Positions 1,086-47,848 of a DNA stretch of 64,000 nt are shown here, piece after piece (positions within the stretch are counted from its first letter, which is position 1; each line of letters begins with the position of its first letter). Under the pieces are notes generated by a model that saw only the letters and a list, made by a program, of their open reading frames with translations, searched no databases and was not told the DNA's origin. The stretch lies in NCBI RefSeq assembly GCF_050920415.1, contig NZ_CP169309.1; one strand, written 5' to 3'. The DNA is from Escherichia coli (GTDB taxonomy: Bacteria > Pseudomonadota > Gammaproteobacteria > Enterobacterales > Enterobacteriaceae). The position numbers and the translations under genes were made by a program.

Positions 1086-3761
1086 ATGGCTGTTACTAAT
1101 GTCGCTGAACTTAACGCACTCGTAGAGCGTGTAAAAAAAGCCCAGCGTGAATATGCCAGTTTCACTCAAGAGCAAGTAGACAAAATCTTCCGCGCCGCCG
1201 CTCTGGCTGCTGCAGATGCTCGAATCCCACTCGCGAAAATGGCCGTTGCCGAATCCGGCATGGGTATCGTCGAAGATAAAGTGATCAAAAACCACTTTGC
1301 TTCTGAATATATCTACAACGCCTATAAAGATGAAAAAACCTGTGGTGTTCTGTCTGAAGACGACACTTTTGGTACCATCACTATCGCTGAACCAATCGGT
1401 ATTATTTGCGGTATCGTTCCGACTACTAACCCGACTTCAACGGCTATCTTCAAATCGCTGATCAGCTTGAAGACCCGTAACGCCATTATCTTCTCCCCGC
1501 ACCCGCGTGCTAAAGATGCAACCAACAAAGCTGCAGATATTGTTCTGCAGGCTGCTATCGCTGCTGGTGCGCCGAAAGACCTGATTGGCTGGATCGATCA
1601 ACCTTCTGTTGAACTGTCTAACGCGCTGATGCACCACCCAGACATCAACCTGATCCTCGCGACCGGTGGTCCGGGTATGGTTAAAGCCGCATACAGCTCC
1701 GGTAAACCAGCTATCGGCGTAGGCGCGGGTAACACTCCAGTCGTTATCGATGAAACTGCTGATATCAAACGTGCAGTTGCATCTGTACTGATGTCTAAAA
1801 CCTTCGACAACGGCGTAATCTGTGCTTCTGAACAATCTGTTGTTGTAGTTGACTCTGTTTATGACGCGGTACGTGAGCGTTTCGCTACCCACGGCGGTTA
1901 CATACTGCAGGGCAAAGAGCTGAAAGCAGTTCAGGATGTTATCCTGAAAAACGGTGCGCTGAACGCGGCTATCGTTGGTCAGCCAGCCTATAAAATTGCT
2001 GAACTGGCAGGCTTCTCTGTACCAGAAAACACCAAGATTCTGATCGGTGAAGTGACCGTTGTTGATGAAAGCGAACCGTTCGCACATGAAAAACTGTCCC
2101 CAACTCTGGCAATGTACCGCGCTAAAGATTTCGAAGACGCGGTAGAAAAAGCAGAGAAACTGGTTGCTATGGGCGGCATCGGTCATACCTCTTGCCTGTA
2201 CACTGACCAGGATAACCAACCGGCTCGCGTTGCCTACTTCGGTCAGAAAATGAAAACGGCCCGTATTCTGATCAACACCCCGGCGTCTCAGGGTGGTATC
2301 GGTGACCTGTATAACTTCAAACTCGCACCTTCCCTGACTCTGGGTTGTGGTTCCTGGGGTGGTAACTCCATCTCTGAAAACGTTGGTCCGAAACACCTGA
2401 TCAACAAGAAAACCGTTGCTAAGCGAGCTGAAAACATGTTGTGGCACAAACTTCCGAAATCTATCTACTTCCGCCGTGGCTCTCTGCCAATCGCGCTGGA
2501 TGAAGTGATTACTGATGGCCACAAACGTGCGCTCATCGTGACTGACCGCTTCCTGTTCAACAATGGTTATGCTGATCAGATCACTTCCGTACTGAAAGCA
2601 GCAGGCGTTGAAACTGAAGTCTTCTTCGAAGTAGAAGCTGACCCGACCCTGAGCATCGTTCGTAAAGGTGCAGAACTGGCAAACTCCTTCAAACCAGACG
2701 TGATTATCGCGCTGGGTGGTGGTTCCCCGATGGATGCCGCGAAGATCATGTGGGTCATGTACGAACATCCGGAAACTCACTTCGAAGAACTGGCGCTGCG
2801 CTTTATGGATATCCGTAAACGTATCTACAAGTTCCCGAAAATGGGCGTGAAAGCGAAAATGATCGCTGTCACCACCACTTCTGGTACAGGTTCTGAAGTC
2901 ACTCCGTTTGCGGTTGTAACTGACGACGCTACTGGTCAGAAATATCCGCTGGCAGACTATGCGCTGACCCCGGATATGGCGATTGTCGATGCCAACCTGG
3001 TTATGGACATGCCGAAGTCCCTGTGTGCTTTCGGTGGTCTGGACGCAGTAACTCACGCCATGGAAGCTTATGTTTCTGTACTGGCATCTGAGTTCTCTGA
3101 TGGTCAGGCTCTGCAGGCACTGAAACTGCTGAAAGAATATCTGCCAGCGTCCTACCACGAAGGATCTAAAAATCCGGTAGCGCGTGAACGTGTTCACAGT
3201 GCAGCAACTATCGCGGGTATCGCGTTTGCGAACGCCTTCCTGGGTGTATGTCACTCAATGGCGCACAAACTGGGTTCCCAGTTCCATATTCCGCACGGTC
3301 TGGCAAACGCCCTGCTGATTTGTAACGTTATTCGCTACAACGCGAATGACAACCCGACCAAGCAGACTGCATTCAGCCAGTATGACCGTCCGCAGGCTCG
3401 CCGTCGTTATGCTGAAATTGCTGACCACCTGGGTCTGAGCGCACCGGGCGACCGTACTGCTGCTAAGATCGAGAAACTGCTGGCATGGCTGGAAACGCTG
3501 AAAGCTGAACTGGGTATTCCGAAATCTATCCGTGAAGCTGGCGTTCAGGAAGCAGACTTCCTGGCGAATGTGGATAAACTGTCTGAAGATGCATTCGATG
3601 ACCAGTGCACCGGCGCTAACCCGCGTTACCCACTGATCTCCGAGCTGAAACAGATTCTGCTGGATACCTACTACGGTCGTGATTATGTAGAAGGTGAAAC
3701 TGCAGCGAAAAAAGAAGCCGCTCCGGCTAAAGCTGAGAAAAAAGCGAAGAAATCCGCTTAA
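1086..3761 (+). CDS. adhE: Bifunctional acetaldehyde-CoA/alcohol dehydrogenase AdhE
   Basis: 891-aa [29 protein letters not shown]...; N-terminal aldehyde dehydrogenase domain and C-terminal iron-containing ADH domain ([10 protein letters not shown]). Confidence 0.97.
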
Positions 3762-36735: not shown

Positions 36736-38415
36736 GTGAACAAAATATTTTCCTCACATGTGATGCCTTTCCGCGCTCTGATCGACGCTTGCTGGAAAGA
36801 AAAATATACTGCCGCACGGTTTACCCGTGACCTGATTGCCGGGATAACCGTCGGGATTATTGCTATCCCGCTGGCGATGGCGTTGGCTATTGGTAGTGGT
36901 GTGGCACCCCAGTACGGTTTATATACCGCAGCTGTTGCGGGGATTGTCATTGCTCTGACGGGGGGGTCACGCTTTAGCGTTTCCGGTCCGACTGCGGCAT
37001 TTGTGGTAATTCTCTATCCCGTTTCGCAACAGTTTGGACTGGCAGGACTGCTGGTCGCGACCTTGCTGTCGGGGATCTTTTTGATTCTGATGGGGCTGGC
37101 ACGCTTTGGTCGCCTGATTGAGTATATTCCGGTTTCCGTCACCTTAGGTTTCACCTCGGGTATCGGGATCACCATCGGTACCATGCAGATTAAAGATTTT
37201 CTCGGTCTGCAAATGGCCCATGTCCCGGAACATTATCTACAAAAAGTCGGCGCATTATTTATGGCGCTGCCGACCATTAATGTGGGTGATGCTGCCATTG
37301 GCATTGTGACGCTTGGCATTCTGGTTTTCTGGCCGCGTCTGGGCATTCGTTTGCCTGGTCACCTTCCGGCCTTACTCGCTGGTTGCGCGGTGATGGGGGT
37401 TGTTAACCTGCTCGGCGGACATGTTGCTACCATCGGTTCGCAATTCCACTACGTTCTGGCCGATGGTTCTCAGGGTAACGGTATTCCGCAATTGCTGCCA
37501 CAACTGGTGCTGCCATGGGATCTACCTGATTCAGAATTCACGCTAACCTGGGATTCTATTCGCACACTGCTGCCTGCGGCATTCTCAATGGCAATGCTCG
37601 GCGCAATCGAATCTCTGCTCTGCGCCGTGGTACTGGATGGTATGACCGGAACGAAACACAAAGCGAACAGCGAACTGGTTGGACAGGGACTGGGGAATAT
37701 CATCGCCCCGTTCTTTGGTGGTATTACCGCTACAGCTGCCATCGCGCGTTCTGCCGCTAACGTCCGTGCCGGGGCAACTTCCCCTATCTCGGCGGTGATC
37801 CACTCTATTCTGGTTATTCTTGCCCTGCTGGTACTGGCACCGCTGCTCTCCTGGCTGCCGCTTTCCGCCATGGCGGCCCTGCTGTTGATGGTAGCGTGGA
37901 ACATGAGTGAAGCGCACAAAGTGGTCGACTTGCTGCGTCATGCGCCGAAAGATGACATCATCGTCATGCTACTGTGTATGTCATTGACTGTGCTGTTTGA
38001 TATGGTTATTGCCATCAGTGTGGGGATCGTGTTGGCATCGCTGCTGTTTATGCGTCGTATCGCGCGTATGACTCGCCTGGCACCAGTAGTCGTAGACGTT
38101 CCAGACGATGTCCTGGTTCTGCGCGTTATTGGCCCGCTGTTCTTTGCTGCGGCTGAAGGCCTGTTCACGGACCTCGAGTCACGCCTCGAAGGCAAGCGGA
38201 TTGTCATTCTGAAGTGGGATGCCGTTCCGGTGCTTGATGCTGGTGGCCTTGATGCATTCCAGCGTTTTGTGAAGCGTCTGCCCGAAGGATGTGAACTCCG
38301 CGTGTGTAACGTGGAATTCCAGCCGCTGCGCACTATGGCTCGCGCAGGGATTCAACCGATCCCGGGACGCCTGGCGTTCTTCCCGAATCGTCGCGCGGCG
38401 ATGGCGGATTTATAA
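36736..38415 (+). CDS. dauA: C4-dicarboxylate transporter DauA (SulP family, STAS domain)
   Basis: 559-aa ORF from GTG: [51 protein letters not shown]... Confidence 0.93.
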
Positions 38416-38469
38416 GTACGAAATTGACCAGTCAGCGCAAACTGACTGGTCAGCAAACGGCATTATTTG

Positions 38470-38748
38470 TTAGCTATGACGGCGATTATCGCTACGGCGG
38501 CAACGTTTGTCATAGTGGCGAACCCACCAGTAACGGTCGCACACCTGTTCATGCCCGCCAACACGGGCACCCGCCAGCCAGAGAATGGCACCGACGAAAA
38601 TACTTAGCACTGCACCATGTGCGAAATACTGGGGCATATTAAACTGTGGTAACTGGTTGAGGATTGAATACCCCACGCCGACCACCATTACCACCAGACC
38701 CAACCCCATGAGCACGTTACCGAGTAACGAAGCGTTTTTGCGTTTCAT
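38470..38748 (-). CDS. ychH: Small inner membrane protein YchH
   Basis: 92-aa ORF MKRKNASLLGNVLMGLGLVVMVVGVGYSILNQLPQF... Confidence 0.85.
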   Translation of the reverse strand: MKRKNASLLGNVLMGLGLVVMVVGVGYSILNQLPQFNMPQYFAHGAVLSIFVGAILWLAGARVGGHEQVCDRYWWVRHYDKRCRRSDNRRHS

Positions 38749-39025
38749 ATGTCACCTCCGGAACTTTCTGGGTTGTAACAGGGAATACCCCTCTTCCTTA
38801 TGTGTAAAGTATAGACAACACCCTGTGGGTTATGTGCGGGCGTGATCACAATTACAACCCTTATTTCAACAAAACTTTACAAATAAACGCCTGAACACCT
38901 TGACTTTCTAATAGTCCACTTAGGCAATTATTGCGTTATCTGCATTTGATACGCAGTTTTTTGTCAAGCGGGGCCGCAACCAGTAAACTACGCGCCAGTT
39001 ATGTACACACTCAGGACAAAAAAAC

Positions 39026-39610
39026 GTGACGATTAAATTGATTGTCGGCCTGGCGAACCCCGGCGCTGAATACGCCGCAACGCGACATAATGCTGGTGCC
39101 TGGTTCGTTGACTTACTGGCAGAGCGTTTGCGTGCTCCGCTGCGCGAAGAGGCTAAATTCTTTGGTTATACTTCGCGAGTCACCCTTGGAGGCGAAGATG
39201 TCCGCCTGTTAGTCCCGACTACATTTATGAATCTCAGCGGCAAAGCCGTTGCGGCGATGGCCAGTTTTTTCCGCATTAATCCGGACGAAATTCTGGTTGC
39301 CCACGACGAACTGGATCTGCCACCTGGCGTCGCCAAATTTAAGTTGGGCGGTGGCCATGGTGGTCACAATGGACTGAAAGACATCATCAGTAAATTGGGT
39401 AATAACCCTAACTTTCACCGTTTACGCATCGGAATCGGTCATCCAGGCGATAAAAATAAAGTTGTCGGTTTTGTGTTAGGCAAACCGCCTGTTAGTGAAC
39501 AGAAGTTAATTGATGAAGCCATCGACGAAGCGGCACGTTGTACTGAAATGTGGTTTACAGAGGGCTTGACCAAAGCAACGAACCGATTGCACGCCTTTAA
39601 AGCGCAATAA
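39026..39610 (+). CDS. pth: Peptidyl-tRNA hydrolase
   Basis: 194-aa ORF from GTG: [32 protein letters not shown]... Confidence 0.95.
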
Positions 39611-39726
39611 GTCGTTGTCTGCGGCATTTTTGCCGAGTGCCGTGTATAATAGGCAAAGTTATTTCCATTTCTGCAATCTGTTAGCAATAACAGGTTGATT
39701 ATTAAGATATTAAGGTGATTTAAATC

Positions 39727-40818
39727 ATGGGATTCAAATGCGGTATCGTCGGTTTGCCCAACGTCGGGAAATCTACCCTGTTCAACGCGCTGACCAAAGC
39801 CGGTATTGAAGCGGCCAACTTTCCATTCTGCACCATCGAGCCGAACACAGGCGTCGTACCAATGCCTGACCCTCGCCTGGATCAACTGGCTGAAATCGTA
39901 AAACCGCAGCGTACGCTTCCCACGACCATGGAATTTGTCGATATCGCCGGTCTGGTAAAAGGCGCATCGAAAGGCGAAGGTCTGGGTAACCAGTTCCTGA
40001 CCAACATCCGTGAAACCGAAGCGATCGGTCACGTTGTTCGCTGCTTTGAAAACGACAACATCATTCACGTTTCCGGCAAAGTTAACCCGGCGGATGATAT
40101 TGAAGTTATCAACACAGAACTGGCGCTGGCAGACCTCGACACCTGCGAACGTGCGATTCATCGCGTACAGAAGAAAGCCAAAGGCGGCGATAAAGACGCG
40201 AAAGCCGAGCTGGCGGTACTGGAAAAATGCCTGCCACAGCTGGAAAACGCAGGTATGCTGCGCGCGCTGGATTTAAGCGCTGAAGAGAAAGCGGCTATTC
40301 GTTACCTGAGCTTCCTGACGCTGAAACCAACAATGTACATCGCCAACGTCAACGAAGACGGTTTTGAAAACAACCCGTATCTTGACCAGGTGCGTGAAAT
40401 CGCGGCGAAAGAAGGTTCTGTTGTGGTTCCGGTTTGTGCTGCTGTTGAAGCAGACATTGCCGAACTGGACGACGAAGAACGTGACGAGTTTATGCAGGAG
40501 CTTGGGCTGGAAGAGCCGGGCCTAAACCGCGTGATCCGTGCCGGTTATAAGCTGCTGAACCTGCAAACTTACTTCACCGCTGGGGTGAAAGAAGTGCGTG
40601 CATGGACCATTCCGGTTGGTGCAACCGCGCCGCAGGCCGCTGGCAAAATCCATACTGATTTTGAAAAAGGCTTTATCCGTGCACAAACTATTTCGTTCGA
40701 AGATTTCATCACTTACAAAGGTGAACAAGGCGCGAAAGAAGCGGGCAAAATGCGTGCAGAAGGTAAAGATTACATCGTTAAAGATGGCGATGTAATGAAC
40801 TTCCTGTTCAATGTCTAA
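39727..40818 (+). CDS. ychF: Ribosome-binding ATPase YchF (Obg family)
   Basis: 363-aa ORF with G1 motif [15 protein letters not shown] and TGS domain. Confidence 0.96.
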
Positions 40819-41064
40819 TTAATTTGTTGTCTCATGAGGTTTCGCTAAATCTCATGAAGAGCGCAAAAGTATATAAAATCCACGCAATTGCGTGGATTTT
40901 TTCATTTCACCGAGTCCTAACCATTCTTATAACATCCTACACTTTTGTGCTTATTGCCTATAGTGAACCACGAGAATAATTAAAGACATAAGTGTTCAGA
41001 TGAGGGATATCTCATTAGCAATGAGATCACGTAAGTTTGTGTTCCACTGCACATCAGACACCTT

Positions 41065-41295
41065 TTACAGCTGATCAATATTGATCACGTTCCAATATGC
41101 TGGCGAGAAAAGGACTTGCCTGAAGAGCAATATCCAGCAGATAAAGCCCCCGAATAACGTGATTACGTGCGATCCTGGCAAGATGAAAATGATAACCAGT
41201 ATCACGATAATAACGATATGCCAGAAAATCCATTGATCAAAAATGAATATCGATGTTTTTTGCTTTTTCTTATTAGTAATGCAAAAATGGCTCAT
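41065..41295 (-). CDS. Hypothetical small membrane protein (76 aa), unannotated candidate
   Basis: ORF MSHFCITNKKKQKTSIFIFDQWIFWHIVIIVILVIIFILPGSHVITLFGGFICWILLF... has a Lys-rich N-terminus followed by one or two hydrophobic helices; lies in AT-rich DNA, so a chance ORF cannot be excluded. Confidence 0.25.
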   Translation of the reverse strand: MSHFCITNKKKQKTSIFIFDQWIFWHIVIIVILVIIFILPGSHVITLFGGFICWILLFRQVLFSPAYWNVINIDQL

Positions 41296-41663
41296 ATTGT
41301 TTTTGTTATGCAGTTACATCAAGCGAAAATCCCATAACTAATTAGGATTATTACCAAAAATATTCACCAAATTATTTAACCGCTGTTTGTTGTAATGTTT
41401 TTGTCATATTCATAGTAACGAATTGGAATAAGTAACGACAACTTAGGGAATAACTCGATCTAAACTCACCTTTGTAAAGGGGATGTTAAATATATATTAA
41501 TTCCTGTGTTCCTGATTTTGCCCGGTAATAGAGAATTATTCTCAGAGCAGCTCATCATGATTGCACCATACAAATATCATGATGATAAGAGGATATTATT
41601 CATTGACTTAAACAAAATGACAAAATCCATAGACCCATAGCTTGGGTACTATATAGGAGTGGT

Positions 41664-44531
41664 ATGGGCATCAAACAACACAATGGGAATACCAAAGCCG
41701 ATCGTCTCGCTGAATTAAAAATCCGTTCGCCCTCCATTCAACTGATAAAATATGGCGCTATTGGTTTGAATGCAATTATCTTTTCCCCCCTGCTGATAGC
41801 TGCTGATTTAGGAAGTCAAAATGGCACCAATATTACTATTAATGATGGTGACAGAATTACAGGAGATACCGCCGATCCATCAGGAAACCTCTATGGTGTA
41901 ATGACCCCAGCAGGAAACACGCCTGGCAATATCAACCTGGGTGATGATGTCACCGTCAATGTCAACGACGCCTCTGGATATGCAAAGGGAATCATTATTC
42001 AGGGCAAGAACAGCTCTCTGACAGCTAACCGACTTACAGTAGATGTTGTTGGTCAAACCTCTGCCATCGGCATTAATTTAATTGGTGACTATACACATGC
42101 TGACTTAGGCACAGGCAGCACCATTAAGAGTAACGATGACGGCATCATTATTGGGCATAGCTCAACACTAACAGCCTCTCAATTCACCATTGAAAACTCG
42201 AACGGTATAGGCCTAACCATCAATGACTATGGCACCAGTGTCGATCTTGGAAGCGGTAGTAAAATCAAGACCGATGGAAGTACAGGTGTTTATATCGGTG
42301 GTCTCAACGGCAATAACGCCAACGGTGCTGCGCGTTTTACGGCGACAGACCTGACAATCGATGTTCAGGGCTACAGCGCCATGGGAATAAACGTACAGAA
42401 AAACTCTGTTGTCGATCTCGGAACAAACAGTACCATTAAAACCAATGGCGATAATGCACACGGCCTCTGGAGCTTTGGCCAGGTGAGCGCGAATGCACTC
42501 ACTGTTGATGTAACTGGAGCCGCTGCCAATGGCGTCGAAGTTCGTGGTGGTACAACCACTATCGGTGCTGATAGCCATATTTCTTCCGCGCAGGGCGGTG
42601 GCCTCGTAACCAGTGGTTCAGACGCGACAATCAATTTTTCTGGCACGGCAGCGCAACGAAACAGCATCTTTTCCAGCGGTTCTTATGGTGCCTCAGCCCA
42701 GACGGCAACGGCTGTTATCAACATGCAAAATACCGATATTACGGTTGATCGTAATGGCAGTCTGGCGCTGGGTTTGTGGGCGCTCAGCGGCGGTAGAATA
42801 ACCGGAGACAGTTTGGCTATCACCGGCGCGGCAGGAGCCAGGGGGATTTATGCCATGACCAACAGCCAGATCGATCTCACGAGCGATCTGGTCATTGATA
42901 TGAGTACACCCGACCAGATGGCCATCGCAACGCAACATGACGATGGTTATGCCGCCAGCCGCATCAACGCCTCGGGTCGTATGCTTATCAACGGTAGCGT
43001 TCTTTCTAAAGGTGGGCTAATCAATCTGGATATGCACCCTGGGTCGGTTTGGACAGGTTCTTCCCTCAGCGATAATGTCAATGGCGGAAAACTGGACGTT
43101 GCAATGAATAACAGCGTCTGGAACGTAACAAGTAATTCTAATCTCGACACGCTGGCGCTGAGCCATTCAACTGTCGATTTTGCCAGCCACGCGTCAACTG
43201 CCGGCACATTTACCACATTAAACGTAGAGAACCTTAGCGGTAACAGTACCTTTATTATGCGTGCTGATGTTGTTGGCGAGGGTAATGGCGTTAATAATAA
43301 AGGAGATTTATTGAATATCTGCGGGAGTAGTGCTGGTAATCACGTATTGGCTATCCGTAACCAGGGCAGCGAGGCCACAACGGGAAATGAAGTTCTGACA
43401 GTGGTAAAAACCACTGACGGCGCGGCCTCGTTCAGCGCGTCTTCTCAGGTTGAGTTGGGGGGATATCTGTATGATGTGCGTAAAAATGGCACTAACTGGG
43501 AGCTTTATGCTTCCGGGACAATTCCGGAGCCGACTCCTAATCCAGAGCCCACACCAGCTCCCGCTCAGCCCCCCATAGTCAACCCCGATCCTACGCCTGC
43601 CCCCGCTCCCACGCCTAAACCCACCACGACCGCAGATGCTGGCGGCAATTATCTCAATGTCGGTTACTTATTGAACTATGTTGAAAACCGTACGCTGATG
43701 CAACGGATGGGTGACCTGCGAAATCAGGGTAAAGACGGTAATATCTGGTTGCGCAGTTATGGGGGAAGCCTGGACTCCTTTGCCAGTGGCAAACTGAGCG
43801 GCTTTGACATGGGTTACAGCGGTATCCAGTTTGGTGGGGATAAACGTCTCTCTGATGAAATGCCGTTGTATGTCGGTCTGTATATTGGCTCAACACATGC
43901 ATCGCCGGACTATAGCGGAGGCGACGGTACCGCACGTTCAGACTACATGGGAATGTACGCCAGTTACATGGCACACAACGGTTTTTACAGCGATCTCGTT
44001 GTAAAAGCATCGCACCAGAAAAATAGTTTCCACGTACTGGACAGTCAGAACAACGGCGTTAACGCCAACGGCACTGCGAATGGATTGAGCATCTCCCTGG
44101 AAGCCGGGCAGAGGTTCAACCTGACCCCTACTGGTTATGGGTTCTATATAGAGCCGCAAACCCAGCTCACATACAGCCACCAGAATGGGATGGCTATGAA
44201 GGCGAGTAATGGTCTCAATATACATCTGAATCACTACGAATCGCTGCTGGGGCGTGCCAGCATGATACTGGGATATGACATCACCGCAGGCAACAGCCAG
44301 CTGAATGTCTATGTGAAGACTGGCGCTATCCGCGAGTTTTCAGGGGATACCGAATATCTGTTGAACAACTCCCGGGAGAAGTACAGTTTCAAAGGTAATG
44401 GCTGGAATAACGGCGTGGGAGTCAGTGCACAGTATAACAAACAGCACACATTCTATCTCGAAGCGGATTACACGCAGGGTAACCTCTTTGATCAGAAGCA
44501 AGTCAACGGAGGATATCGCTTCAGCTTTTAA
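41664..44531 (+). CDS. ycgV: Autotransporter adhesin (YcgV-type; type Va secretion)
   Basis: 955-aa ORF; GGAG SD upstream; repetitive Gly/Thr/Asn-rich beta-helix passenger; Pro-rich linker PEPTPNPEPTPAPAQPPIVNPDPTPAPAPTPKPTTT; C-terminal beta-barrel ending ...GGYRFSF. Confidence 0.9.
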   Translation: MGIKQHNGNTKADRLAELKIRSPSIQLIKYGAIGLNAIIFSPLLIAADLGSQNGTNITINDGDRITGDTADPSGNLYGVMTPAGNTPGNINLGDDVTVNVNDASGYAKGIIIQGKNSSLTANRLTVDVVGQTSAIGINLIGDYTHADLGTGSTIKSNDDGIIIGHSSTLTASQFTIENSNGIGLTINDYGTSVDLGSGSKIKTDGSTGVYIGGLNGNNANGAARFTATDLTIDVQGYSAMGINVQKNSVVDLGTNSTIKTNGDNAHGLWSFGQVSANALTVDVTGAAANGVEVRGGTTTIGADSHISSAQGGGLVTSGSDATINFSGTAAQRNSIFSSGSYGASAQTATAVINMQNTDITVDRNGSLALGLWALSGGRITGDSLAITGAAGARGIYAMTNSQIDLTSDLVIDMSTPDQMAIATQHDDGYAASRINASGRMLINGSVLSKGGLINLDMHPGSVWTGSSLSDNVNGGKLDVAMNNSVWNVTSNSNLDTLALSHSTVDFASHASTAGTFTTLNVENLSGNSTFIMRADVVGEGNGVNNKGDLLNICGSSAGNHVLAIRNQGSEATTGNEVLTVVKTTDGAASFSASSQVELGGYLYDVRKNGTNWELYASGTIPEPTPNPEPTPAPAQPPIVNPDPTPAPAPTPKPTTTADAGGNYLNVGYLLNYVENRTLMQRMGDLRNQGKDGNIWLRSYGGSLDSFASGKLSGFDMGYSGIQFGGDKRLSDEMPLYVGLYIGSTHASPDYSGGDGTARSDYMGMYASYMAHNGFYSDLVVKASHQKNSFHVLDSQNNGVNANGTANGLSISLEAGQRFNLTPTGYGFYIEPQTQLTYSHQNGMAMKASNGLNIHLNHYESLLGRASMILGYDITAGNSQLNVYVKTGAIREFSGDTEYLLNNSREKYSFKGNGWNNGVGVSAQYNKQHTFYLEADYTQGNLFDQKQVNGGYRFSF

Positions 44532-44630
44532 GTGCGGGATAGACAAGCCCTTAAACGATGCTGAAAATTTTTAGCGTGCGCCGGAATGAAATACAGATCA
44601 CTCTGATGTATCAGAAATCGTCTCTGTCTT

Positions 44631-46550
44631 TCATACCCGGCGCTTAAACTGCCCTGCATCAATGCCATGTTGCTTCATTTTCCGCCACAGCGTAGTGCGG
44701 CCGATTCCAAGTAAAGCCGACATTTCCTGAATGCGACCGCCTGTGACCTGGGCTGCGTTAATAATTGCCTCTTTTTCAACTTCCGCAAATGACAGACTGG
44801 TGGAAAGGCGAGTGGCGCTGACATCATCTGTCGCCTGCTCGGTAAACAGATGTTCAGGTAAATCACTGACGCGAATGCGCCCGTTATCACTACTCAGAGC
44901 AAGATTCTCGATGACGCTGTAAAGTTCAAAATCGTTGCCTGGCCATGCACAAGAAACCAGGCGAGCGAGGGCATCGTCATCAATTTTCAGACGCGTAGAG
45001 AAGCGTTTTTCAAGACTGCGTAATTTGTTATTCACCAGCGCCGGAATGCTGCCACGCCGCATACGCAGAGGCGGGATGGTAATTTCAAATGCATGCAGCG
45101 CGTAATACAGCTGGCGACTAAAGCGATTTTGTTCCACCAGCATTGCCAGGTCCGCGGTCGTTGTGGCAATCACTTTGACATCAATTGGTATTAAACGCCG
45201 CGCATCCAGTCGCGTGATAACACCCTGCTTGATAACCTGAAGCAAAGCAGACTGTAACTCCACCGCCAGATATTCAATCTTTTCAAGAAACAGCGTGCCG
45301 CCGTGCGCCAGTTCCAGTCGACTCAGACGACCATTTTCATTGTCCGTGCGATCGCCGCCAATAAATTCTTCCGCCAGCGCCGCATCACCATATAACTCAC
45401 AATTGACGGCGATATAAGGCCCCGCTGCACGCTCACTTTCATTATGAATTGCCTGACTTAGCAGTGCCTTGCCCACGCCCTCTTCTCCACAAAGCAGGAC
45501 AGGAAAGCTACTGCGCGCCGCCTGGCGACCAAAATGAATCAAGCGGCGGGTTTGCGGATCGTCCTGTGGCATATGAGCGAAAGTATGGCTGACTTTTCCT
45601 AATTGACTGGTCATTAACTGCCGCATCTGTTCCACAGGATGGAGCAACAAAATAAAGCTGGTTCCCTGCGTTTCTATTATCGGTTTAAGGGTTATCACCG
45701 CATCAATAAACTGGTGCTGACTTTCAAAGGTTGCTTCTACGTGTTTGAGCGGATGTGCCTGTTTTATTGCTTGTTGCAATACGGCGGGTAACGTTAAGAG
45801 TTCAGTGATCGCCCTTCCCTGACTTGCCGTCGCGTCAAGGCGCAAGGCCCGCGCCGCCTGGGCATTGATAAATTGCAAATTACCCTGCTCGTCCCAGCTA
45901 ATCACGCCATCATCCATACTTTCTAACAGGGCATTAAGTTGATTTAAATGACGGTTAGTTTCAGCGAGCAAACTGTCCGTCAGCAGTAAATTTCCGACCT
46001 CGCGTGCGATTGCCAACGTCAACGGCAAATCAGCTGCGGTAGTTTGCTCAACCGGACACGCCAGCGCTATTGTTCCCGTCAATCGGCCCTTGCTGTCAAA
46101 CAACGGTGTTGCACAAAAGGCCCAGTTCCAGAGTGCCTGTTTGAAATGTTGATCGGCCATCGTTTTCACGGCCTGACCAGAGATAGCCGCTAACGATAGC
46201 GCACAGGTACCAATAATTCCCTCTGCGCAATACGTGCCGTCATTGAATCCCAGGACACTAAGCTGGTGCAGCGTTTGTGGATCACCAAAACGACTAAGGA
46301 TGCAGGCGGTTTCATCAAGGATGAACAGTCCGCACGCCCGCGATTCCATATATTCCCAGGCATCTTCCAGCGCAGCCTGCCCGAGCGTCAGCATCGCTTT
46401 CTTACGCCGATAGATAGTAGCAAATGTCACGCCCTGGGCCTGGTGCGGTACGCTCCATGTCTCCCGTTTCATCAGTTTATTGCATCGCTCCCAGGAGGCT
46501 GCAATTAAGGGAGATATGCCCCGTTCATCGTTGTTAAAAGCGCCACTCAT
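44631..46550 (-). CDS. dhaR: Dihydroxyacetone kinase operon transcriptional activator DhaR (GAF/PAS, sigma54-type AAA+, HTH)
   Basis: 639 aa from ATG 46550 (MSGAFNNDERGISPLIAASWERCNKLM...); the track ORF extends 27 codons upstream. AAA+ motif GEEGVGKALL, C-terminal HTH. Confidence 0.92.
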   Translation of the reverse strand: MSGAFNNDERGISPLIAASWERCNKLMKRETWSVPHQAQGVTFATIYRRKKAMLTLGQAALEDAWEYMESRACGLFILDETACILSRFGDPQTLHQLSVLGFNDGTYCAEGIIGTCALSLAAISGQAVKTMADQHFKQALWNWAFCATPLFDSKGRLTGTIALACPVEQTTAADLPLTLAIAREVGNLLLTDSLLAETNRHLNQLNALLESMDDGVISWDEQGNLQFINAQAARALRLDATASQGRAITELLTLPAVLQQAIKQAHPLKHVEATFESQHQFIDAVITLKPIIETQGTSFILLLHPVEQMRQLMTSQLGKVSHTFAHMPQDDPQTRRLIHFGRQAARSSFPVLLCGEEGVGKALLSQAIHNESERAAGPYIAVNCELYGDAALAEEFIGGDRTDNENGRLSRLELAHGGTLFLEKIEYLAVELQSALLQVIKQGVITRLDARRLIPIDVKVIATTTADLAMLVEQNRFSRQLYYALHAFEITIPPLRMRRGSIPALVNNKLRSLEKRFSTRLKIDDDALARLVSCAWPGNDFELYSVIENLALSSDNGRIRVSDLPEHLFTEQATDDVSATRLSTSLSFAEVEKEAIINAAQVTGGRIQEMSALLGIGRTTLWRKMKQHGIDAGQFKRRV

Positions 46551-46777
46551 ATCCCGCATCCTTTGTGACAAAAGGTGTTCCGGCTCGCAATTTTTAGTAT
46601 TAAAACGCGTAAAAGTTTCAATATGGAACATTCATTAAAACATATGTTTCACCATGAAACATAATTTGGGCTAATTTTCTTTTCCCTTACCTGATGCACA
46701 ATGGATTTATCGGCAGTCAGTGGTCGCCGTGTCGTTGAACATCATCCATGCCCTACCGTAATTGCTGGAGCAAGATA

Positions 46778-47848
46778 ATGAAAAAATTGATCAATGATGT
46801 GCAAGACGTTCTGGACGAACAACTGGCGGGTCTGGCGAAAGCACATTCATCGCTGACACTGCATCAGGATCCGGTGTATGTCACCCGAGCTGATGCCCCC
46901 GTTGCAGGAAAAGTCGCCCTGCTGTCGGGCGGCGGCAGCGGACACGAACCGATGCACTGCGGTTATATCGGTCAGGGGATGCTTTCGGGGGCCTGTCCGG
47001 GCGAAATATTCACCTCACCGACGCCCGATAAAATTTTTGAATGCGCCATGCAAGTTGATGGCGGCGAAGGTGTACTGCTGATTATCAAAAATTACACCGG
47101 CGATATTCTTAACTTTGAAACAGCAACAGAATTACTGCACGATAGCGGCGTAAAAGTGACCACCGTGGTCATTGATGACGACGTTGCAGTAAAAGACAGT
47201 CTTTATACCGCTGGGCGGCGCGGCGTTGCCAACACCGTATTAATCGAAAAACTCGTAGGCGCAGCGGCAGAACGTGGCGACTCGCTGGAGGCTTGTGCAC
47301 AACTGGGGCGTAAGTTGAACAATCAGGGCCATTCTATTGGTATCGCCCTCAATGCCTGTACCGTTCCTGCCGCGGGAAAACCTTCTTTTACGCTGGCAGA
47401 TAATGAGATGGAGTTTGGCGTCGGCATTCATGGTGAGCCGGGTATTGACCGCCGCCCCTTCTCCTCCCTTGACCAAACCGTCGATGAAATGTTCGACACC
47501 CTGCTGGAAAATGGCACATACCACCGCACGCTCCGCTTCTGGGATTATCGACAAGGTAGCTGGCAGGAAGAGACGCAAACTAAACAACCGCTTCAGTCTG
47601 GCGATCGAGTAATTGCACTCGTCAACAATCTTGGTGCAACTCCGCTTTCTGAACTGTATGGCGTCTATAACCGCCTGGCCACGCGTTGCCAGCAAGCGGG
47701 CTTGACTATCGAGCGCAATTTAATCGGCGCGTATTGTACCTCACTGGACATGACCGGTTTTTCCATCACCTTACTGAAAGTTGATGACGAAACGCTGGCG
47801 TTATGGGACGCCCCGGTCCACACCCCGGCGCTTAACTGGGGTAAATAA
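46778..47848 (+). CDS. dhaK: Dihydroxyacetone kinase, DHA-binding subunit
   Basis: 356 aa from ATG 46778 (MKKLINDVQDVLDEQLAGLAKAH...); divergent from dhaR. Confidence 0.94.
   Translation: MKKLINDVQDVLDEQLAGLAKAHSSLTLHQDPVYVTRADAPVAGKVALLSGGGSGHEPMHCGYIGQGMLSGACPGEIFTSPTPDKIFECAMQVDGGEGVLLIIKNYTGDILNFETATELLHDSGVKVTTVVIDDDVAVKDSLYTAGRRGVANTVLIEKLVGAAAERGDSLEACAQLGRKLNNQGHSIGIALNACTVPAAGKPSFTLADNEMEFGVGIHGEPGIDRRPFSSLDQTVDEMFDTLLENGTYHRTLRFWDYRQGSWQEETQTKQPLQSGDRVIALVNNLGATPLSELYGVYNRLATRCQQAGLTIERNLIGAYCTSLDMTGFSITLLKVDDETLALWDAPVHTPALNWGK

Follow-up and report, generated by a model that had tools for sequence, protein, structure and literature searches.

An intact ycgV autotransporter gene and its AT-rich upstream region in an Escherichia coli chromosome

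Background

The ycgV gene of Escherichia coli K-12 (b1202) encodes a putative adhesin autotransporter. Its forced expression affects biofilm formation and adhesion, according to Roux 2005 as relayed in two reviews (PMC3796261, PMC9289746), and ycgV mutations appear in biofilm-selected fim-deletion populations (PMC10117834). A published phylogeny places the protein in Group 4 together with the self-associating autotransporters (SAATs) Ag43, AIDA-I and TibA (PMC9289746), and its C-terminal scaffold is able to display cargo on the cell surface (PMC13101318). Here we analyse a 64,000-nucleotide stretch of an E. coli chromosome (contig NZ_CP169309.1 of RefSeq assembly GCF_050920415.1; hereafter the window), in which an initial annotation, made from the sequence alone, had placed a YcgV-type autotransporter gene at 41664–44531 behind a long AT-rich upstream region.

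The upstream region also has a published history. The ycgV/ychF intergenic region is one of 78 'promoter islands' of K-12 (U00096.2 position 1255333, 301 bp) and is bound by H-NS in all three chromatin immunoprecipitation (ChIP) studies compiled in Table 1 of the same work (PMC3661553). In avian pathogenic E. coli (APEC) the LysR-type regulator YbdO binds a 126-bp ycgV probe in electrophoretic mobility shift assays (EMSA), and deletion of ybdO raises ycgV mRNA 4.1-fold as measured by reverse transcription quantitative PCR (RT-qPCR) (PMC11681634). The literature thus already covers the gene, the binding of H-NS upstream of it and the adhesion seen when it is forcibly expressed. Finding a named and catalogued autotransporter in the window is a correct but ordinary result of limited importance; what the window adds concerns the state of the allele, the variation of the passenger and the leader.

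Results

Identity and integrity of the gene

We estimate at about 85% the probability that the feature is the already catalogued E. coli accessory gene ycgV with an AT-rich regulatory region of its own, encoding a K-12-type autotransporter that is largely silent in the laboratory. The coding sequence (CDS) and its ribosome-binding site lie as follows.

41664..44531, plus strand: ycgV CDS, 955 aa plus stop, intact (open reading frame, profile matches, K-12 alignment)
41655..41659, plus strand: Shine-Dalgarno sequence AGGAG, 4 nt ahead of the ycgV ATG (read from the sequence; kept in Citrobacter farmeri)

In the list of open reading frames (ORFs) of the window, 41664–44531 is a single unbroken plus-strand frame of 955 codons with an ATG start, one terminal stop and the C-terminus ...GGYRFSF, which confirms the intact 955-aa frame of the initial annotation. 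Position 41664 is the first available start past the upstream in-frame stop, and within codons 1–60 only one other in-frame start occurs, a TTG (codon 35) in the hydrophobic core of the leader. The gene order is dauA-ychH-pth-ychF-[gap]-ycgV-dhaR-dhaK, on an E. coli chromosome, and the position of ycgV between ychF and dhaR is the same in the window, in K-12 and in annotated genomes.

A megablast comparison with 5426 complete E. coli genomes found 40700–44700 to be 100% identical to NZ_CP169399 (strain MFDS1022581), whose annotation has a ycgV CDS (WP_001353264.1) between ychF and dhaR. Alignment to K-12 YcgV, proposed with the initial annotation as a check, gave 931 of 955 identical residues (97%) and no gaps; together with the annotation of NZ_CP169399 and the shared synteny, this bears out the assignment to ycgV. 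The exact protein of the window is recorded on 352 contigs, and 13,508 sequences fall in its 90% identity cluster.

ChIP work on K-12 located an intragenic sigma-54 binding motif within ycgV (PMC4591121); the same sequence, TTGGCTCAACACATGCA, recurs unchanged at 43885–43901 (plus strand), facing the ycgV 3' end and, beyond it, dhaR in antisense orientation.

Domain architecture and fold

The encoded protein divides into the following parts.

41664..41804, plus strand: extended leader (aa 1–47), with a charged extension of ~29 aa, hydrophobic core GAIGLNAIIFSPLLIAA and predicted cleavage at ~A46/A47 before DLGSQ (family alignment)
41805..43511, plus strand: passenger, right-handed beta-helix (aa ~48–616) (AlphaFold2 model; Foldseek match to pertactin; PF03212; Vag8)
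43143–43508, plus strand: pertactin-type autochaperone, the C-terminal part of the passenger (aa 494–615) (PF03212)
43524..43631, plus strand: Pro/Thr-rich disordered linker PEPTPNPEPTPAPAQPPIVNPDPTPAPAPTPKPTTT (aa 621–656), variable in length (sequence; low model confidence)
43626..43721, plus strand: alpha-helical segment (aa 655–686), expected to lie in the barrel pore (DSSP of the model; aligns with the EspP and BrkA transport units)
43737..44528, plus strand: C-terminal outer-membrane beta-barrel translocator (aa 692–955), ending ...YRFSF (PF03797, TIGR01414, Foldseek)

Profile searches placed the Pfam Pertactin domain (PF03212) at aa 494–615 (E 1e-37, 129 bits against a cut-off of 22, profile positions 1–120 of 121) and the Autotransporter beta-domain (PF03797) at aa 694–935 (E 1e-37, 130 bits against a cut-off of 26), while TIGR01414 scored 356 bits against a cut-off of 16. 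The Pfam search gave no match to a serine-protease (Peptidase S6) domain, and similarity to EspP and Hbp is restricted to the barrel. Sequence matches in the PDB were led by Vag8 (7akv, E 1e-25, aa 480–954), BrkA (2e-23) and pertactin (2e-11), and included EspP and Hbp. The terminal residue F955 is invariant in 39 YcgV homologues.

We built an AlphaFold2 model from the 39-sequence family alignment, with a mean predicted local distance difference test (pLDDT) score of 84. In the model the leader (aa 1–44) is unstructured (pLDDT <50), the passenger (aa ~50–616) forms a continuous all-beta structure with pLDDT mostly >90 (>90 over aa 50–500), and the linker at aa 620–647 is disordered (pLDDT <50). 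DSSP assigned helices at aa 655–661, 663–679 and 682–686, between the disordered linker and a barrel at aa 692–954. In Foldseek searches of the PDB the barrel matched the BrkA beta-domain (3qq2, TM-score 0.90, root mean square deviation 2.6 A), EspP (TM-score 0.84–0.85), Hbp and NalP, with a weaker match to the AIDA-I transport unit (0.68); the passenger matched pertactin (1dab, E 6e-13, 664 aligned columns), and Ag43 was a weak match (TM-score 0.22).

The profile matches and the AlphaFold2 and Foldseek results identify YcgV as a classical (type Va) autotransporter with an autochaperone of the pertactin type. The architecture in the initial annotation (type Va, beta-helix passenger, Pro/Thr linker, barrel ending in F) agrees with the Pfam, TIGR01414, AlphaFold2 and Foldseek results: the barrel domain that it named as a point for profile searches is present above the cut-offs of both PF03797 and TIGR01414, and its linker, given as about 43524–43633, coincides within 2 nt with the one found here.

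An extended leader common to the family

The features of the leader are common to the alignment of 39 family members, which share the charged extension, the hydrophobic region and an A-x-A-(A)-D/(L/I)GSQ junction; the Pantoea members carry a conventional short form. A leader of the ESPR type was rejected, as a search of the N-terminal 60 aa with the ESPR profile PF13018 found nothing, even with E-values up to 10 allowed. In a recent paper on a display toolkit YcgV is considered 'leaderless', that is, without a reliable signal peptide (PMC13101318). Despite that suggestion the unusual leader looks conserved in the family, and we infer from its sequence that it would be a real, atypically long Sec leader cleaved near A46/A47, which would also set the export route of the native protein.

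Passenger repeats and allele length variants

The initial annotation called the passenger repetitive. This holds at the protein level, where degenerate repeats of roughly 50–57 aa can be followed through LTAxxLT[VI]D at aa 119, 169 and 225 and DLGxxSxI at aa 147, 194 and 251, but not at the DNA level, where Tandem Repeats Finder detected no tandem repeats in the CDS. A direct-repeat search marked one unit of the passenger.

42239–42277 and 42410–42448, plus strand: 39-nt direct repeat pair, 171 nt (57 codons) apart, marking one passenger repeat unit (direct-repeat search)

Alleles of 861–898 aa at the ychF-dhaR locus have lost exactly this 57-aa unit in frame (aa ~193–250), and a larger part of the passenger is missing, also in frame, from an 825-aa allele. 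The passenger of YcgV thus varies through in-frame deletions of whole repeats. The common 961-aa allele carries an additional PDPTPE in the linker.

The AT-rich upstream region

Four features of the region upstream of ycgV are referred to below.

40819..41663, plus strand: AT-rich intergenic region upstream of ycgV, 845 bp, G+C 0.349 (G+C profile; no annotated gene)
40875..40900, no strand assigned: intrinsic terminator hairpin of ychF, a perfect 13+13 palindrome with flanking A/T runs, bidirectional (terminator scan; inverted repeat)
~41206..41506, no strand assigned: stretch that would match the K-12 H-NS-bound promoter island, with the lowest G+C (0.28–0.29) (mapped by distance from the ATG)
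41538..41663, plus strand: promoter-proximal segment equivalent to the 126-bp YbdO probe (primer mapping; EMSA and RT-qPCR, PMC11681634)

Between the ychF stop (40818) and the ycgV ATG lie 845 bp with a G+C content of 0.349, about 4 standard deviations (sd) below the window mean of 0.505 (sd 0.038, 845-bp windows). This is the 845-bp stretch of lowest G+C in the 64-kb window (0.08% of windows are equally low), with a minimum of 0.28–0.29 at 41200–41500; the ycgV CDS, at 0.497, is not AT-rich. No gene is annotated by PGAP in this region in the genomes inspected, nor any feature in 4120 genomes that carry it. The length, AT-richness and lack of genes in the initial annotation therefore stand, while 'untranslated', as it described the region, is to be read as intergenic.

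Five small ORFs (44–76 aa) in the gap gave no significant Pfam or NCBIfam match. An Rfam scan of 38300–46800 by E-value returned only sub-threshold leader matches: those at 40803–40992 (Leu_leader, 34 bits against 50, Phe_leader and BSnc120) all overlap the hairpin at 40875–40900, and we rejected them as terminator look-alikes.

The region is 94.5–98.5% identical among 10 other E. coli alleles compared. The version in the window is a minority type, as 3443 of 4121 matching records are only 90–95% identical to it. A 75-bp segment (41100–41174), flanked by CTGGC microhomology, is present in the window and O157 and absent from K-12 and one enterotoxigenic E. coli (ETEC) strain; this indel explains why the upstream region is 845 bp long in the window but 768 bp in K-12. 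The proximal ~360 bp can be aligned with the upstream region of the Citrobacter farmeri homologue, at about 70% identity in the promoter-proximal segment, and we found no similarity to the upstream regions of other homologues.

Conservation is greatest close to the gene. The block 41551–41600 has no variable site among 11 E. coli alleles and contains two copies of ATCATGAT, at 41552–41561 and 41576–41585, forming a 10+10 inverted repeat. A further palindrome, GAGAATTATTCTC at 41531–41543, is partly conserved in C. farmeri. These palindromes (41531–41543 and 41552–41585) are candidate operator sites, and the probe-equivalent stretch 41538–41663 takes in the invariant block, the paired palindromes and part of the palindrome at 41531–41543. 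A perfect palindrome of 16 bp with two Dam sites, TGATCAATATTGATCA, lies farther out at 41072–41087, ~580 bp ahead of the ATG; it is imperfect in K-12, its second GATC is lost in O157, and it is probably not functional.

To place the promoter island we used K-12 coordinates 1252308–1255175 of U00096.2, which we take to be those of ycgV and which are consistent with the published sigma-54 table. By this mapping the island would correspond to ~41206–41506, the G+C trough of the window.

Distribution and variation in E. coli and beyond

At least 80% of 40700–44700 is carried by 3930 of the 5426 complete genomes (~72%), and a further 1297 (24%), including ST131 O25b:H4 and the uropathogenic E. coli (UPEC) strain 536, have a 404-bp filler in place of the ycgV cassette.

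40823..44637, plus strand: accessory ycgV cassette, from the ychF stop codon to the last dhaR codon (alignment of the window, K-12 and SCU-171)

Aligned with SCU-171, which has no ycgV, the window and K-12 diverge 2 nt past the ychF stop and re-converge within the last two codons of dhaR. The filler (2620–3023 of the SCU-171 locus) encodes a 58-aa His-rich lipoprotein-like ORF, MKKTFTFSLLAIVFASLLSAC..., which is also found in Escherichia marmotae, where it is annotated as a lipoprotein. Its presence there suggests that the ancestral state is the filler, and that ycgV came in with an acquired cassette.

Among genomes that have the gene, defective versions are frequent. A truncated 867-aa protein without the last barrel strands is represented by 3116 sequences, and a 716-aa form without the N-terminus by 1256. 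EFF60 carries a frameshifted allele and an ETEC strain a truncated one, and in O157 Xuzhou21 a deletion has taken the 3' end of ycgV and most of dhaR, leaving ycgV fused to a dhaR remnant. The ycgV copy of the window strain is intact, and a large proportion of E. coli lack the gene or carry it truncated. The ratio of nonsynonymous to synonymous substitution rates (dN/dS) is 0.21 for the comparison with K-12 and 0.17 for that with C. farmeri. Despite the common loss and truncation, values of ~0.2 indicate a maintained protein under purifying selection.

Full-length homologues with 47–83% identity occur in Citrobacter, Leminorella, Morganella, Pragia and Pantoea. They sit at unrelated loci, and in Pantoea and Enterobacter on plasmids. 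The true plasmid copies are distant homologues only (46–56% identity, in Pantoea and Enterobacter). A plasmid origin of ycgV was considered and rejected: the E. coli 'plasmid' matches are mislabelled chromosomes or chromosomal fragments with the same upstream region.

In C. farmeri, Morganella morganii and Leminorella grimontii the homologue follows 585–1342 bp at a G+C of 0.34–0.37, while the gene itself is at 0.51–0.55. The Morganella stretch contains a gene for an 89-aa XRE-family helix-turn-helix (HTH) protein, 153 bp ahead of the autotransporter; as a tblastn search of the window gave no credible match to it, we discarded the idea of a remnant there. Stretches of 0.6–1.3 kb at 34–37% G+C thus precede a gene of ~51–55% G+C at four unrelated loci. 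This could mean that the YcgV family travels as a two-part module, in which the autotransporter gene, with a functional non-ESPR leader extension of ~25 aa that defeats signal-peptide predictors, is accompanied by its own long AT-rich silencing and regulatory platform. We consider this quite unlikely; were platform and leader both functional and conserved, the family would represent a small, previously unrecognised variant in regulation and export among type Va adhesins.

Discussion

A proposed model of a silenced adhesin autotransporter

The observations are consistent with the following model. YcgV would pass through Sec by means of its long N-terminal leader, and the beta-barrel assembly machinery (BAM) would insert the C-terminal ~265 aa as an outer-membrane barrel, with the helix and Pro/Thr linker threading the pore. 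Outside the cell the ~570-aa passenger would fold, starting from the pertactin-type autochaperone, into a beta-helix rod, which when made may increase adhesion and biofilm formation. In the laboratory the gene would be largely silent, with H-NS coating the ~0.8 kb of AT-rich upstream DNA and YbdO adding direct repression through the promoter-proximal ~125 bp, so that expression would require counter-silencing or mutation. The suggestion in the initial annotation that the upstream region is silenced by H-NS agrees with the published K-12 occupancy data, and H-NS occupancy may well be the cause of silence in the window strain; within the sequence, it is the AT-richness that points to silencing. 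The description of the K-12 orthologue as cryptic and poorly characterised was likewise accurate, since the reviews give a forced-expression effect and neither mechanism nor structure (PMC3796261, PMC9289746).

Several points weigh against this account. The region upstream of ycgV shows no enrichment of the Lang-type high-affinity motif for H-NS, TCGATAAATT, as its single match at up to 2 mismatches equals the window background of ~1 per kb, and a scan with the sigma-70 consensus gave no good forward promoter near the ATG. H-NS binding, silencing and adhesion, as well as the biofilm phenotype and YbdO binding, would all be carried over from K-12 and APEC orthologues, and the former three come from orthologues with 97% protein identity and only ~95% identity in the upstream DNA. 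As for export, SignalP 6.0 gives the K-12 leader a probability of only 0.47, and surface display through the YcgV scaffold was demonstrated only with an exogenous signal peptide (PMC13101318). Finally, loss or truncation in many E. coli lineages argues for a dispensable function.

The last point can be taken further, to the proposal that ycgV is an evolutionary relic, horizontally acquired, silent and decaying, which has no present function in E. coli. The filler that replaces it in ~24% of genomes, partial deletions such as the Xuzhou21 fusion, the large truncated lineages of 867 and 716 aa, the EFF60 frameshift and the cryptic status of the gene in K-12 all speak for this proposal. However, the allele in the window is intact, dN/dS is 0.17–0.21 over the whole gene, and the exact protein and its cluster are as widely recorded as described above. 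In published scans, moreover, ycgV is reported as being under positive selection, not relaxed decay (PMC9110714), forced expression produces adhesion according to the reviews cited above (PMC3796261, PMC9289746), and deletion of ybdO in APEC yields fourfold more ycgV mRNA (PMC11681634). We therefore regard a relic as unlikely. It is very unlikely that the main control over ycgV expression lies with a Dam/OxyR phase switch like that of Ag43, or with specific regulators, and not with H-NS coating of the AT-rich DNA. The 845 bp hold six GATC sites (about 7 per kb compared to 4.1 per kb in the window), including those of the palindrome at 41072–41087, and GATC sites assigned to ycgV are differentially methylated in evolved K-12 clones (PMC10653831); for specific regulators, there is the binding of YbdO to the proximal probe (PMC11681634) and the conserved palindromes at 41531–41543 and 41552–41585. 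However, the GATC palindrome is distant from the ATG (~580 bp) and lacks conservation, the proximal 200 bp have no GATC cluster (the closest site is at 41457), there are no DNA tandem repeats able to slip, and H-NS occupancy comes from three independent ChIP studies (PMC3661553). An Ag43-like Dam switch in particular appears unlikely from the arrangement of these sites.

It has also to be asked whether the gap is explained by a 76-aa two-pass membrane protein encoded at 41065–41295 (minus strand), or by another unannotated element. The ORF has two hydrophobic stretches and is called 'membrane protein' in a few GenBank records, and in another assembly a gene finder predicted a version of 67 aa. 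Its length, however, is 76 aa in only 2 of the 11 E. coli alleles (the window included), 59 aa in 7 and 51 aa in 2; the 51-aa form, in K-12 and one ETEC strain, results from the 75-bp deletion, and in the ETEC strain the ATG is changed to TTG. Nearly all substitutions in the ORF are nonsynonymous. Neither Pfam nor NCBIfam gave a significant match, no family in Rfam passed its threshold, and there is no similarity to the upstream DNA of homologues beyond C. farmeri. We rejected the ORF, which is not conserved among alleles and is probably not a gene, and consider a coding or other element of this kind extremely improbable.

The intact allele, the repeat deletions and the leader described here may serve as a guide for the use of YcgV in surface display and for studies of cryptic adhesins.

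Comparison with known systems

The autotransporters with solved structures that best match YcgV are pertactin, BrkA and Vag8 of Bordetella, with which it shares the PF03212 autochaperone, a beta-helix passenger and a barrel of the 12-strand type. Identity in the aligned parts is only 16–26%, and the N-terminal two thirds of the YcgV passenger have no sequence match. YcgV is not known to confer serum resistance or to bind C1 inhibitor. The SPATE autotransporters differ from YcgV in having a Peptidase S6 domain.

Like YcgV, the E. coli adhesins Ag43, AIDA-I and TibA belong to type Va, have a beta-helix and promote biofilm formation. The 'AIDA/Ag43-class' label of the initial annotation nevertheless proved loose once alignments were made: YcgV scores 15.7 bits against a cut-off of 1459 with the AIDA-I family NCBIfam model (PRK09752 or equivalents), neither Ag43 nor AIDA-I was matched in the PDB sequence search at E up to 1e-3, and the nearest solved proteins are Vag8, BrkA and pertactin. 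YcgV is also unlike Ag43 in its fold match (TM-score 0.22) and in having no promoter-proximal Dam/OxyR GATC switch, and unlike the AIDA-I/Ag43 class in having no ESPR-type signal peptide (PF13018). The label is a functional analogy only.

In its regulation ycgV resembles the H-NS-silenced cryptic adhesin loci of K-12 (such as sfm, yad, ecp and the fim switch regions), sharing with them an AT-rich upstream region, an H-NS-bound promoter island, association with a putatively foreign gene and silence in the laboratory. It differs in being a single gene rather than a fimbrial operon, and YbdO has so far been reported only as a repressor. The closest system remains K-12 YcgV itself, which is like the protein of the window in locus, length (955 aa), domain matches and RefSeq name, and differs from it by 24 amino acid substitutions and by an upstream region that is 768 bp long instead of 845 bp and ~95% identical.

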